A DNA stretch of 24,721 bases, from positions 1 to 24,721 of the IMG/VR virus record IMGVR_UViG_3300020248_000008. One strand, written 5' to 3'. How positions within the stretch are numbered: the stretch's first letter is position 1; each line of letters starts with the position of its first letter. This document shows, piece by piece, positions 2,664-5,805 of this stretch. Source of the DNA: a virus. Taxonomy: Duplodnaviria; Caudoviricetes. A model generated the notes under the pieces. That model saw only the letters and a program-made list of their open reading frames with translations. It did no database searches and was not told the DNA's origin. The translations under genes were made by a program, and so were the position numbers.

Positions 2664-2771
2664 TTAGAATATACCTGGAATGATTTGACCTGTGAATGTG
2701 TAAGCACCAACTGCTGCAACGAAACCAAGCATTGCTGCCCAACCGTTAAATCTTTCTGCTTCTGGAGTCAT
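2664..2771 (-). CDS. hli: High-light inducible protein (35 aa; in-frame alternative start at 2816)
   Basis: MTPEAERFNGWAAMLGFVAAVGAYTFTGQIIPGIF; GAGG RBS upstream; not in the ORF track. Confidence 0.95.
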   Translation of the reverse strand: MTPEAERFNGWAAMLGFVAAVGAYTFTGQIIPGIF

Positions 2772-2815
2772 TAGTTTTTCCTCTTTGTTGATTGTGAATT
2801 GTGATTGAAATTTCA

Positions 2816-2929
2816 TTAATAGAATCCTGGAATTATCCATCCAGTAAAACCGTAGTTTATTACAGCGATGGCGAAACCCATCATTGCTAATCTACCGTTT
2901 GTTTGCTCTGCGTTCTTCCAATAGTTCAT
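2816..2929 (-). CDS. hli: High-light inducible protein (37 aa)
   Basis: MNYWKNAEQTNGRLAMMGFAIAVINYGFTGWIIPGFY; start at 2929 is TAATG-coupled (the track ORF is over-extended). Confidence 0.95.
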   Translation of the reverse strand: MNYWKNAEQTNGRLAMMGFAIAVINYGFTGWIIPGFY

Positions 2930-3126
2930 TAGAAGATACCTGGAATGATTTGCCCTGTAGTTGCGTATGCACCTATCAATGCTACGAATCCGATCATCGC
3001 CCAACGACCGTTGACTTTCTCAGCATTCTGAGGATAACCTTCGTAGGAAACAGACTCATCTATGTAAGGTCTGGTTTCGGTTGGGAAGGCATTTTGTCTT
3101 CCACCTGATTCAGTAATAACTGTCAT
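2929..3126 (-). CDS. hli: High-light inducible protein (65 aa, long N-terminus type)
   Basis: MTVITESGGRQNAFPTETRPY...NAEKVNGRWAMIGFVALIGAYATTGQIIPGIF; start placed at 3126, downstream of the promoter. Confidence 0.95.
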   Translation of the reverse strand: MTVITESGGRQNAFPTETRPYIDESVSYEGYPQNAEKVNGRWAMIGFVALIGAYATTGQIIPGIF

Positions 3127-3153
3127 TGTCTTTTGTAAAGAAACGTTACATAT

Positions 3154-3183
3154 ATTATATAGCATTGTAAAGATTTGTGTCAA
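3154..3183 (-). promoter_or_regulatory. Sigma70-type promoter of the hli operon
   Basis: TTGACA (3183-3178), 18 bp spacer, TATAAT (3159-3154). Confidence 0.85.
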
Positions 3184-3525: not shown

Positions 3526-3551
3526 AAAAAAAGACCCCTGTGTAGGGGTCT
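3526..3551 (-). terminator. Intrinsic terminator
   Basis: AGACCCCU-ACAC-AGGGGUCU followed by a U-run, directly at the endonuclease stop. Confidence 0.9.
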
Positions 3552-4017
3552 ATGTGACGGATTCAGAATCGTAATAGTCTTTTTTATAATAACGACCAAG
3601 TATGTTGCTGTTATAGTATGCAGGTGTACCGTCTTTTAATTTTTCTGTTAATACATTGTTGGCAAAAAGTTGTCGTGTCTCTTCATAGTTTGTCTTTCCA
3701 ACGGTGGGATGTAAGGAGAGTATTCTTCTGGAAAAACATTGCTTTCCGTACTCCTTAATATCTCGCTTAAGATCTGGACAACTTCCATAGTAATTCTTCC
3801 AGTCGCTTTCACTCGTACGTCTCCTACCTCCACCTCTAGGTTTTCGTTTTTGAACAAAGTATTTGCGTCCGATATACTTTTGTCCAGTGCGTTCGTTTGT
3901 GATGACATAGACGAACCCGTAACTACTCCCAATGTCAGTGCTGTTAAAGATATTGCTATCAAAGATCCACGGGTTATCATAGTGTTGTTCATTCGTGTTC
4001 GACTCCTTCTTGTTCAT
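3550..4017 (-). CDS. GIY-YIG family endonuclease
   Basis: GFVYVITNERTGQKYIGRK (GIY-YIG variant), YYGS, and a conserved Glu helix plus YYN; ATG at 4017 preferred over the track start at 4080. Confidence 0.85.
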   Translation of the reverse strand: MNKKESNTNEQHYDNPWIFDSNIFNSTDIGSSYGFVYVITNERTGQKYIGRKYFVQKRKPRGGGRRRTSESDWKNYYGSCPDLKRDIKEYGKQCFSRRILSLHPTVGKTNYEETRQLFANNVLTEKLKDGTPAYYNSNILGRYYKKDYYDSESVT

Positions 4018-4138
4018 ACTGTGGTAAATGATCAGGTCCCTCAGTATATGTAGTAACATCTGAGTAGACTTCTGATTCAAGTTCGTTGATTAGATACTTC
4101 AATTCTCCAATCAAAACTTTGAGTTTGTCTTTATCCAT
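3989..4138 (-). CDS. Conserved cyanophage hypothetical protein (49 aa)
   Basis: MDKDKLKVLIGELKYLINELESEVYSDV...; 8-nt overlap with the talC end. Confidence 0.75.
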   Translation of the reverse strand: MDKDKLKVLIGELKYLINELESEVYSDVTTYTEGPDHLPQYEQEGVEHE

Positions 4139-4860: not shown

Positions 4861-4888
4861 ATTATAACATTAATTTTCTGTTTGTCTA
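4861..4888 (-). promoter_or_regulatory. Possible sigma70 extended -10 promoter for talC
   Basis: TAGACA (4888-4883), 16 bp spacer, TGn-TATAAT (hexamer 4866-4861). Confidence 0.5.
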
Positions 4889-5058
4889 GGGTTATGCAGA
4901 AACCAGTTATTTATATTGAATGTATCTAATCGAACCCATTTAGCGTAATGAACTCCTCTATAGCATAGCATAGCGAAGACCTCTTTCGGATCGTGGATCT
5001 CAGGATCATACTCTGGTAAATCATAGTCAAGACCCCAACTAAAATGGATTCTTAACAT
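4870..5058 (-). CDS. Hypothetical protein with a YRGV motif (62 aa)
   Basis: ORF track; GGAGG and AAGG upstream; LCYRGVHY segment. Confidence 0.75.
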   Translation of the reverse strand: MLRIHFSWGLDYDLPEYDPEIHDPKEVFAMLCYRGVHYAKWVRLDTFNINNWFLHNPRQTEN

Positions 5059-5063
5059 AGACC

Positions 5064-5156
5064 TTATCCCTCCAATCTTTGCAGTAGACGGACTTCAAAA
5101 TAAAATAGTGAAAGGGCAACTGCCATAAGGAGGGTTATCTGAGTAACAATCATCAT
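5064..5156 (-). CDS. 30-aa hydrophobic microprotein
   Basis: MMIVTQITLLMAVALSLFYFEVRLLQRLEG; AAGGAGGAG RBS and ATGA overlap with the DUF4278 stop. Confidence 0.7.
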   Translation of the reverse strand: MMIVTQITLLMAVALSLFYFEVRLLQRLEG

Positions 5157-5281
5157 TTGTTCTCCTCCTTTACTTTTAGACCTCTATAAACGAGATTCTT
5201 TTGTTGTGGTTGTTGAGTCTTCTGACTCTGTACACGAGCGTCGGTATCATAAGGGATACCACGATAAGTTACTTGTGCCAT
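5153..5281 (-). CDS. DUF4278-like small protein (putative glutamine synthetase inactivating-factor relative)
   Basis: MAQVTYRGIPYDTDARVQSQKTQQPQQKNLVYRGLKVKEENK has two YRG motifs; AGGAG RBS at 5293-5289. Confidence 0.85.
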   Translation of the reverse strand: MAQVTYRGIPYDTDARVQSQKTQQPQQKNLVYRGLKVKEENK

Positions 5282-5318
5282 TTGTTTACTCCTAAAGTAG
5301 TTGGATGTTTTTAAGATC

Positions 5319-5524
5319 CGTTCCTTCAGTCGTTTGCGTCCCAATTACATTCTACTCCCATCGCCTCTGGCAAATAAACTGTATAGAGTTCTATAAGTTC
5401 TTCCCTCTCTTGAGGTGTAAGATCTGGATAACTCTTTGCTTTCTCTACCTTTGCAGCAATCTCTGCACAGGTAAAACCGTTAGTTGCAATGAGTAAAGCA
5501 AGTAGATGAATCATAGGATGAACG
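5319..5524 (-). ncRNA. Glutamine-II (Downstream-peptide)-like riboswitch aptamer 2, split by an ORF
   Basis: 5' half CGUUCAUCCUA (5524-5514); 3' half UGGGACGCAAACGACUGAAGGAACG (5343-5319). P1 CGUUC/GAACG, P2 UCCUA/UGGGA. Directly upstream of the DUF4278-like gene. Confidence 0.8.
5326..5514 (-). CDS. Aptamer-embedded small protein B (62 aa)
   Basis: ORF track; aligns without gaps to the core of 5539..5745; no obvious Shine-Dalgarno. Confidence 0.75.
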   Translation of the reverse strand: MIHLLALLIATNGFTCAEIAAKVEKAKSYPDLTPQEREELIELYTVYLPEAMGVECNWDAND

Positions 5525-5527
5525 TAC

Positions 5528-5756
5528 CGTTCCGCGACTTACTTGCGTCCAATGATAAAGACATCACATCTATCGTCGGATACCTTTGTTCTGAAGTAAT
5601 CTATAAGATACTCCTTGGCATCAGGTATAAGATTCTGATCGCTCATAATCTCTACCCTATTCTGGTTCCACTCTGAACAAGACATCTCCCAATGAGATGG
5701 ATTGTGTTCAGCGATTAGAAACCCCGATAGTGCAAGACTAATCATTTAGATGAACG
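5528..5756 (-). ncRNA. Glutamine-II (Downstream-peptide)-like riboswitch aptamer 1, split by an ORF
   Basis: 5' half CGUUCAUCUAAAUGAU (5756-5741); 3' half AUCAUUGGACGCAAGUAAGUCGCGGAACG (5556-5528). P1 CGUUC/GAACG; P2 is 9 bp with one bulged A. Confidence 0.8.
5539..5745 (-). CDS. Aptamer-embedded small protein A (68 aa)
   Basis: ORF track; hydrophobic N-terminus, two Cys; paralog of 5326..5514; no obvious Shine-Dalgarno. Confidence 0.75.
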   Translation of the reverse strand: MISLALSGFLIAEHNPSHWEMSCSEWNQNRVEIMSDQNLIPDAKEYLIDYFRTKVSDDRCDVFIIGRK

Positions 5757-5805
5757 TTTGTAAATAATGATAACATATTCTTAGAGAAATGTCACCATTC
5801 ACATA

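Follow-up and report, generated by a model that had tools for sequence, protein, structure and literature searches.

Our study examined a window of 24,721 nucleotides (nt), which is the whole stretch from position 1 to 24,721 of the IMG/VR virus record IMGVR_UViG_3300020248_000008 (Duplodnaviria; Caudoviricetes), and within it a riboswitch element at positions 5319 to 5756 on the minus strand. The window contains T4-like replication genes, nrdA and nrdB, transaldolase, hli-like genes and a PhotoRC-II RNA, which identify the source as a T4-like marine cyanophage, and the element is flanked by nrdB and by a small operon closed by a terminator-like hairpin. Two open reading frames (ORFs) are embedded in it, all on the minus strand: ORF a (5745-5539; 68 amino acids (aa), phrog_6471), whose stop codon UAA overlaps loop E and helix P3 of the RNA, and ORF b (5514-5326; 62 aa, phrog_504), whose WDAND tail and UGA are letters of the aptamer. 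Downstream lies a 42-aa DUF4278 ORF (5281-5153, minus strand; PF14105, 25.5 bits against a cut-off of 25.3), the likely regulated gene. An earlier note, made from the letters alone, had described two independent glutamine-II riboswitches in tandem before a DUF4278 gene, each with a protein-coding gene in its P2 loop. Its motifs, both AUGs, both stops and the two ORFs were all found where it had placed them, and a DUF4278 gene does lie downstream; the two units, however, are predicted to form one nested RNA, with an outer glnA-like (type 1) junction, a shared P3 and an inner circularly permuted core. We hold this nested fold, with real genes inside it, to be highly probable.

For comparison, 461 loci together with the window gave 436 anchors, 381 complete parses and, from these, 239 distinct elements; the 55 dropped anchors include contig-end truncations and variants outside the search pattern. 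At each site P2 takes one of two forms, a short hairpin of 7-47 nt or a long insert of 140-234 nt: both P2s are short in 22 elements, only P2b is long in 159, only P2a in 7, and both are long in 51. A second subtype, with an 8-nt third-helix strand, yielded 122 anchors and 92 distinct elements (13 with both P2 short, 40 with only P2b long, 13 with only P2a long, and 26 with both long). The sample is non-random and enriched for variants by design, its counts are of parsed elements, and the conservation of core bases is partly built into the search patterns, all of which has to be held against the fold when the figures below are read. Three loci (L184, L207 and L261) have unit 1 but no unit-2 5' strand directly after it, and appear to be truncated elements.

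In the predicted fold, the outer P1 joins C1-G2-U-U-C (5756-5752) to GAACG (5323-5319), and P2a (5750-5741 with 5556-5548) encloses most of ORF a. The outer-site linker CGCA, with G18 and C19 in the numbering of PMC6698751, and the loop E 5' strand AGUA (5543-5540) together occupy 5547-5540, and are followed by the 5' strand of P3, AGUCG (5539-5535), which pairs with CGACU of unit 2 (5332-5328). Inside P3 lies the inner, circularly permuted P1 hairpin (5532-5520), in which GAACG (5532-5528) and CGUUC (5524-5520) are joined by the loop GUA (G41 at 5527), and then P2b (UCCUA, 5518-5514, with UGGGA, 5343-5339), which encloses most of ORF b. The 3' half (5338-5318) supplies the inner-site linker CGCAAA, the returning strand of P3, the GAA of loop E (5327-5325), the closing strand of P1 and a second G41 (5318). 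AGUA and GAA thus flank P3, with AAA in place of GAA in 78 of the 239 relatives, and P1, P2 and P3 form a three-way junction in the outer core. The contact bases C1, G2, G18, C19, C39, G40 and G41 are present at both sites of the window.

The P1 strands of the two units are identical, and because of this either register can form in the window. The relatives separate them: the within-unit register, in which the P1 helices were first paired, is broken in 9 of 33 relatives for each helix, whereas the swapped, nested pairs are kept in 33 of 33. The first base of the inner hairpin (5532) is a C in 68 of the 239 elements, and its partner at 5520 is a G in all 68, while the position of 5752 is a G in none. 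The outer P1 changes in a compensatory manner in six of the 239 (CGUUU with AAACG, outer pair U-A) and is also backed by RNAalifold and by the way compact relatives align to RF01739; in three elements only the 5' base of unit 1 is changed, which leaves one U-G pair and two mismatches in either register. The P3 helix, which joins the units, varies as AGUCA/UGACU (28), AGACU/AGUCU (3) and AGUCU/AGACU (1), giving 32 compensatory variants among the 239, with three further elements having a wobble pair and one a mismatch. The long-range C19:G41 pair was seen to be swapped across the two halves, C41 of unit 1 facing G19 of unit 2 in 11 of 11 elements (13 matches, two of them non-elements). P2 closure across the coding inserts holds as the earlier note had it: of the 58 long P2a inserts, 56, 58 and 58 keep the first, second and third pairs (pair 3 being C-G in 39 and U-A in 17), and of the 210 long P2b inserts, 210, 210, 209 and 209 keep the first four (pair 1 being U-A in 182 and C-G in 27). 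Unconstrained RNAalifold returned the nested helices for 21 compact elements and, with the inner end of P3 shifted, for 33 gene-bearing ones; in the latter, the named pairs of the nested model were paired in 100% of 756 cells, a value reached by none of 500 shuffles. The inter-unit P3, loop E and the anti-Shine-Dalgarno helix considered below had escaped the earlier note, and all three were seen on comparison.

Several further points weigh against this fold. On a tree of 167 ORF-b sequences the partner base of the inner P1 followed in five of five well-supported independent pairs (p 0.06), P3 and pair 1 of P2b offered one pair each, and pair 4 of P2b gave none of four, since U-G is tolerated there; the test has little power. 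The strands of the inner hairpin lie 3-4 nt apart and would move jointly by recombination, and the 11 G19:C41 cases may represent about two lineages. At seven loci (L068, L111, L405, L419, L422, L430 and L438) the inner-site linker has A19 opposite G41, and here the long-range pair would be lost and the second site possibly dead or altered. Without ligand, the nested fold is predicted to lie about 9.5 kcal/mol above the ensemble, a figure that excludes ligand and tertiary contacts, and P2a has a probability of 0.02 in the full window RNA. The case for nesting is that several helices agree, rather than any one test.

As the earlier note had expected of split aptamers, Rfam found no glutamine family in the window, whether searched whole or locally: there was no match to RF01739 (glnA; cut-off 35 bits) or to RF01704 (glutamine-II; cut-off 33 bits), which taken by itself counts against a glutamine riboswitch. 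None of six gene-bearing loci that were scanned reached the RF01739 cut-off either. Compact relatives, in contrast, score 36.8-43.6 bits with RF01739, above its cut-off. At L009, L034, L027 and L402 (40.2 bits) the match, at 38-44 bits, brings together the unit-1 5' end and the unit-2 3' end; single compact halves reach 34.0 and 35.7 bits with RF01704. These compact forms from nature took the place of the loop-replaced window that the earlier note had proposed as a check. The proposed descent from glutamine riboswitches is supported. Both cores carry glutamine-II contact bases, the window itself passes neither model, and the outer core is predicted to behave as a glutamine-I riboswitch does, its compact form scoring as one.

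With the glutamine-I riboswitch (RF01739; the gifB/IF17 leader of Synechocystis, PMC6212724) the element shares the P1/P2/P3 junction, the AGUA/GAA loop E, the position at the 5' end of the transcript, a DUF4278 gene downstream and 3' bases able to pair with the ribosome-binding site when unbound. It differs in that P3 opens into a second, permuted core rather than a hairpin, in that P2 encloses a gene and in being found in a phage genome. The long-range pair is C19-G41 here and G-C in Synechocystis, and rows of the C form occur in the 2010 glnA alignment. At L415, L424, L433, L470-L473 and L475-L481 the pair of the inner core is reversed to G19:C41, the polarity of the Synechocystis type 1 RNA, and the outer core keeps C19:G41. 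With the glutamine-II riboswitch (RF01704; PDB 6QN3, PMC6698751) it shares the CGUUC/GAACG ligand helix, the GCGCA-type linker, C19:G41, the named contacts and a marine picocyanobacterial setting. Here, however, there is no pseudoknot helix with sequence 3' of GGAACG, the partner strand lying in the other half and the fold being fully nested; the third helix is common to two cores on one chain, and the variable loop holds 140-230 nt of coding sequence. Glutamine-II RNA has been crystallized as a strand-swapped dimer and is described as binding glutamine as two separate pieces (PMC6698751), which makes a split, swapped core physically plausible.

The claim that whole coding genes replace the P2 loops was upheld. 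Of the long inserts, 56 of 58 at the first site and 210 of 210 at the second are filled by an ORF running from start to stop; the AUG lies 4 or 5 nt into P2 in 54 of 56 (a) and 205 of 210 (b), and the stop of ORF b falls at one aptamer position in 204 of 210. With the first codon and the last six codons left out, the ratio of nonsynonymous to synonymous substitution rates (dN/dS) was 0.136 for the ORF a family (19 disjoint pairs), and 0.236 (70 pairs; the main family) and 0.175 for the two main b families, the ORF b of the window being a singleton in the clustering. These values (0.14-0.24) show purifying selection. The a and b families are distantly homologous (hhalign probability 94, E 1e-7). 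ORF a has a hydrophobic N-terminus, two cysteines and a predicted helical hairpin; across the families exactly two cysteines were found in 52 of 52 a-type and 195 of 195 b-type proteins, the first ten residues are hydrophobic on average, and AlphaFold2 gave a confident helical hairpin behind a low-confidence N-terminal helix for both. We infer that they are exported, disulfide-closed mini-proteins. Searches of the embedded proteins found no family in Pfam and no match in the PDB sequences below E 0.42, and Foldseek found no match to the ORF a model in the PDB at E 0.001. The top matches in BFVD were only uncharacterized cyanophage proteins, those in the Atlas were below 0.9 and unnamed, and a profile search gave 164 hits, of which all among the 120 matches listed were unnamed or hypothetical. 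Two loci (L094 and L097) have a 178-nt P2a insert without a spanning ORF that starts within the first 30 nt.

Of the 80 best among 533 loci retrieved on protein similarity only, 79 lie within a complete element, and a contig end truncates the remaining one. Pairing of the P2 arms was better between native than between cross-paired arms in 48 of 52 cases for a and 159 of 204 for b, and all inserts tested, 15 of 15 in each family, were more stable than synonymous-codon shuffles (z -3.95 and -2.54 in the window), so that the coding sequences appear to have been shaped for the RNA fold. Neither embedded gene has a Shine-Dalgarno (SD) sequence. Structure and coding status are well supported by comparison, while binding and regulation are what we infer.

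The predicted OFF-state platform spans 5329-5289 on the minus strand: CUGAAG (5329-5324) pairs with CUUUAG (5297-5292), taking the first two bases of the DUF4278 SD (AGGAG, 5293-5289), and a GGAU/AUCC hairpin hides G40 and G41. AGGAG is in range in 212 of the 239 elements; among these, the variable third pair of this helix is G-C in 68, G-U in 65, A-U in 73, A-C in none and unpairable in six. The bases of the anti-SD strand are also needed for P3, loop E and the outer P1; the two folds therefore exclude each other, and the ligand should free the SD. This arrangement matches the ON logic of the known glutamine riboswitches, both types of which are described as ON switches for DUF4278 genes, and the anti-RBS (ribosome-binding site) model for gifB (PMC6212724). 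Control of DUF4278 in the ON direction by glutamine, as the earlier note had proposed, is accordingly quite likely, on the grounds of the anti-SD covariation, the exclusion of folds and the known types. On the ORF-b tree, 5-6 of 11 pairs for this helix changed the same way and none the opposite way, in a test of little power. Against such control, the accessibility of the SD was not raised when the nested fold was forced in ViennaRNA (0.40 against 0.37), because weak local hairpins remain, and that fold costs about 9.5 kcal/mol when ligand and tertiary contacts are left out. The 5' arms of P2 (UCCU) were considered as the anti-SD and rejected, the predicted partner of the SD being the CGACUGAAG strand. 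In L028, L168 and others with leaders of 53-65 nt, an extra hairpin sits in the loop of the anti-SD helix, leaving the helix unbroken and lengthening the leader to the DUF4278 AUG.

Taken together, a glutamine-sensing riboswitch of two nested cores with two genes between its P2 arms is, as a whole, a probable explanation. At low glutamine, the 3' strands would form the anti-SD helix, keeping DUF4278 off and the AUG of ORF a open. Glutamine would lock the nested fold, draw the anti-SD strand into P3, loop E and P1 and turn DUF4278 on, favouring P2a over an open AUG. The layout itself entails that one molecule cannot hold both a folded sensor and a ribosome on either gene, and a ribosome on either embedded gene would have to unfold the sensor; since both genes lack an SD, they are probably initiated seldom enough for it to fold between ribosomes. 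The claim that glutamine switches the embedded genes off was borne out only in part. The AUG of ORF a is open in the minimum-energy fold at 37 °C, the predicted ligand-free state, and paired in P2a, and its repression is an evenly balanced proposition. For ORF b repression is doubtful: P2b is predicted to form (probability 0.90) whether the aptamer core does or not, and of the AUG it pairs the A alone. Nor does a clean reciprocal switch follow: the UGA of ORF b (5328-5326) lies within the anti-SD strand (5329-5324), and a ribosome stopping there would itself open the DUF4278 SD. RNase E cleavage has been suggested for the gifB riboswitch (PMC8682795) and could add a layer of stability control here.

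A sigma-70-type promoter (GTGACA-N17-TATCAT, 5795-5767, minus strand; 10 of 12 matches) predicts a transcript start near 5760. A -10 box ending 7-10 nt before C1 was found in 196 of 231 relatives, compared to 20 of 860 background windows, and the aptamer therefore likely starts the transcript. A T4-type late promoter box, TATAAATA, lies at 5813-5806 on the same strand (consensus TATAAAT as used in PMC3037559). NtcA-type sites, GTA-N8-TAC in the consensus of the same source, occur in 122 of 219 distinct upstream regions of relatives, compared to 3% in shuffles and two of 204 windows further upstream; 114 of 131 such sites begin 52-61 nt before C1, and about one promoter in two among the relatives has such a palindrome immediately 5' of its -35 box. 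They would link the operon to nitrogen control through a second, independent signal. In the window itself there is only a five-of-six match (5773-5760), over its -10 box, and the T4 late box instead. An exact contig of 481 nt from a marine RNA library (run X1) covers both inserts (5320-5800), as another covers 4882-5306, with far lower contig depth in the flanks, and RNA contigs of three further studies cover parts of the element. Contigs of two runs of one study end at 5800, and that of another study extends to 5904. These contigs give no strand, start or level and may include DNA. In the literature on cyanophage transcription starts nothing relevant was found.

The evidence was weighed against five other explanations. 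The embedded genes could be passengers, with the P2 loop a tolerated slot behind a strong promoter and their translation not regulated by glutamine, while the sensor still controls DUF4278. That either gene can be absent (22 of 239 elements have neither), that P2b is predicted in both states and that P2 is patchily paired after its first 3-5 pairs, which often leaves the AUG with its U and G unpaired, all suit this reading. It explains less well why 79 of 80 protein-found loci lie in the element and the genes almost never outside it, why the AUG offset (54/56, 205/210) and the ORF b stop (204/210) are near-constant and why the coding sequence appears selected to fold; we regard it as unlikely. 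The location of the UGA inside the anti-SD strand also suggests translational coupling, by which ORF b translation would be the main DUF4278 switch and glutamine would act mostly via its rate. The variable base keeps a stop, UGA or UAA, in both of its forms (GAA 161, AAA 78), as coupling would have it, but the same helix and the same G/A alternation are found in compact elements without ORF b, and ORF b has no SD, making this account distinctly improbable. Slightly more improbable is a real fold in which glutamine binding has been lost, or exchanged for that of another ligand, in one core or both, the inner one perhaps being only a scaffold. The inner core is permuted and has no loop E, and A19 faces G41 in some relatives; all contact bases are, however, present at both sites of the window, and the inner long-range pair shows a compensatory swap.

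The two remaining readings fare worse. A tandem pair of self-contained glutamine-II aptamers, each closed by a P1 of its own, can be drawn in the window, where either register pairs. Halves of this kind have rows of their own in the 2010 glnA alignment, some single compact halves score above the Rfam cut-offs (L027, L402, L472 and L480), and the P3 strands of the second subtype are often identical, which makes a within-unit mini-hairpin possible there. Against this, the within-unit P1 is broken in 9 of 33 relatives for each helix and in all 68 C-variants, the long-range pair swaps across the units, and neither unit has a whole loop E, AGUA being in unit 1 and GAA in unit 2; we consider the tandem arrangement very improbable. 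Least probable of all is that the inserts are cut from the RNA in the manner of introns and the compact aptamer forms after processing. RNA contigs do show a joint between 5341 and 5516 in two runs, with a similar joint in a third run, but in two runs it has 9-10 extra letters, like compact relatives known as DNA, at 97% likeness no joint was seen in four further runs, the exact contig spans both inserts, and the ORF starts and stops lie in the aptamer arms.

Tandem riboswitch aptamers, such as the tandem glycine aptamers, share with the nested element the placing of two ligand sites before one expression platform, but here the cores are nested and share a helix rather than standing in series, and are not each closed by their own P1. 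Group I introns carry homing endonuclease genes in peripheral loops and likewise tolerate a gene away from the functional core. They differ in that the host RNA here is a regulatory sensor on the same mRNA, in that no excision was seen and in that the start and stop codons are letters of the sensor.

Cyanophage glutamine riboswitches are known as Rfam hits (PMC9964418, PMC9602691 and PMC9004378), and tandem glnA RNAs were noted in 2010 (PMC2864571). The alignment of that study gives compact phage halves as separate rows with a within-unit P1, one of them from NC_006820; its wide gap at the P2 loop implies that at least one row with a long loop exists, and a string search of it found no gene-bearing row, although gaps could hide them. 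We found no description of nesting or of ORF inserts in glutamine riboswitches in the literature, where key sources of 2010, 2011 and 2015 could mention the layout, and the element is apparently an undescribed, widespread variant of the glutamine riboswitch. A 2017 survey reported only two glutamine aptamers in cyanophage genomes and described phages as rarely using riboswitches (PMC5473149). In contrast, the central 39 nt of the element occur in 431 of 50,697 GenBank phage records, many of which are strains or duplicates, and the two subtypes are estimated at about 1700 stored viral stretches (by the exact 22-nt 3' half of unit 1) and about 1300. All 431 records are named Synechococcus, Prochlorococcus, cyanophage or marine. 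A scan of GTDB with the second 3' half gave five stretches, all bearing the same element; several are on contigs labelled as unrelated organisms and are possibly stray phage DNA. The second subtype includes the cultured phages P-SSM4 and P-HM1, both with two inserts, where the records annotate only hypothetical coding sequences. Its two third-helix strands are often identical (AGCCGACU), which suggests an origin by duplication followed by strand swap.

The broadest reading is that T4-like marine cyanophages commonly carry a two-site glutamine sensor, made by duplication and strand swap, with a permuted aptamer inside and P2 loops that serve as exchangeable gene slots, and that ligand and ribosome traffic act as one switch, yielding a small exported two-cysteine protein at low glutamine and an IF17-like peptide at high glutamine. 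We advance this tentatively, at somewhat less than even chances. If true, riboswitches would be common in T4-like cyanophages and would have been overlooked because genes split them; a gene interrupts the majority of the parsed copies, and Rfam missed the gene-bearing copies scanned. Two architectures would be added, the double aptamer nested around a permuted inner core and the aptamer loop that houses a whole gene, along with a testable route by which infecting phages could sense the nitrogen status of the host. Splitting by genes may likewise have lowered the counts of other riboswitch classes.

The 42-aa DUF4278 ORF is considered IF17-like on its DUF4278 match, and inhibition of glutamine synthetase by its product is putative. 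A [YF]RG motif was found in the first ORF 3' of the element in 167 of 171 elements with enough sequence, and tblastn of the 42-aa peptide against the phage collection gave no match. Short marine DUF4278 forms are described as lacking the C-terminal part needed in Synechocystis (PMC6212724). A hydrophobic ORF of 30 codons (5156-5064, minus strand) with no Pfam match overlaps the DUF4278 stop and is coupled to it; it is followed by a 62-aa ORF (5058-4870, minus strand; phrog_6192) with weak DUF4278 likeness (E 0.16) and by the intrinsic terminator-like hairpin (4858-4831, minus strand) that ends the operon.

Elsewhere in the window, the PhotoRC-II RNA (RF01717, 62 bits) lies at 461-362 on the minus strand; such RNAs are usually found 5' of psbA-type genes. 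Three adjoining hli-like ORFs, of which two have weak matches of the chlorophyll a/b-binding type, and a gene for a SegE GIY-YIG endonuclease occupy 2664-3183 and 3550-4080, also on the minus strand. Among the relatives, manA RNAs (RF01745, 184 and 169 bits) were found in the same loci as the element, at 1165-1350 of L467 (P-SSM4) and 339-137 of L448; that of P-SSM4 is directly upstream of the element and overlaps an annotated coding sequence (1220-1393).

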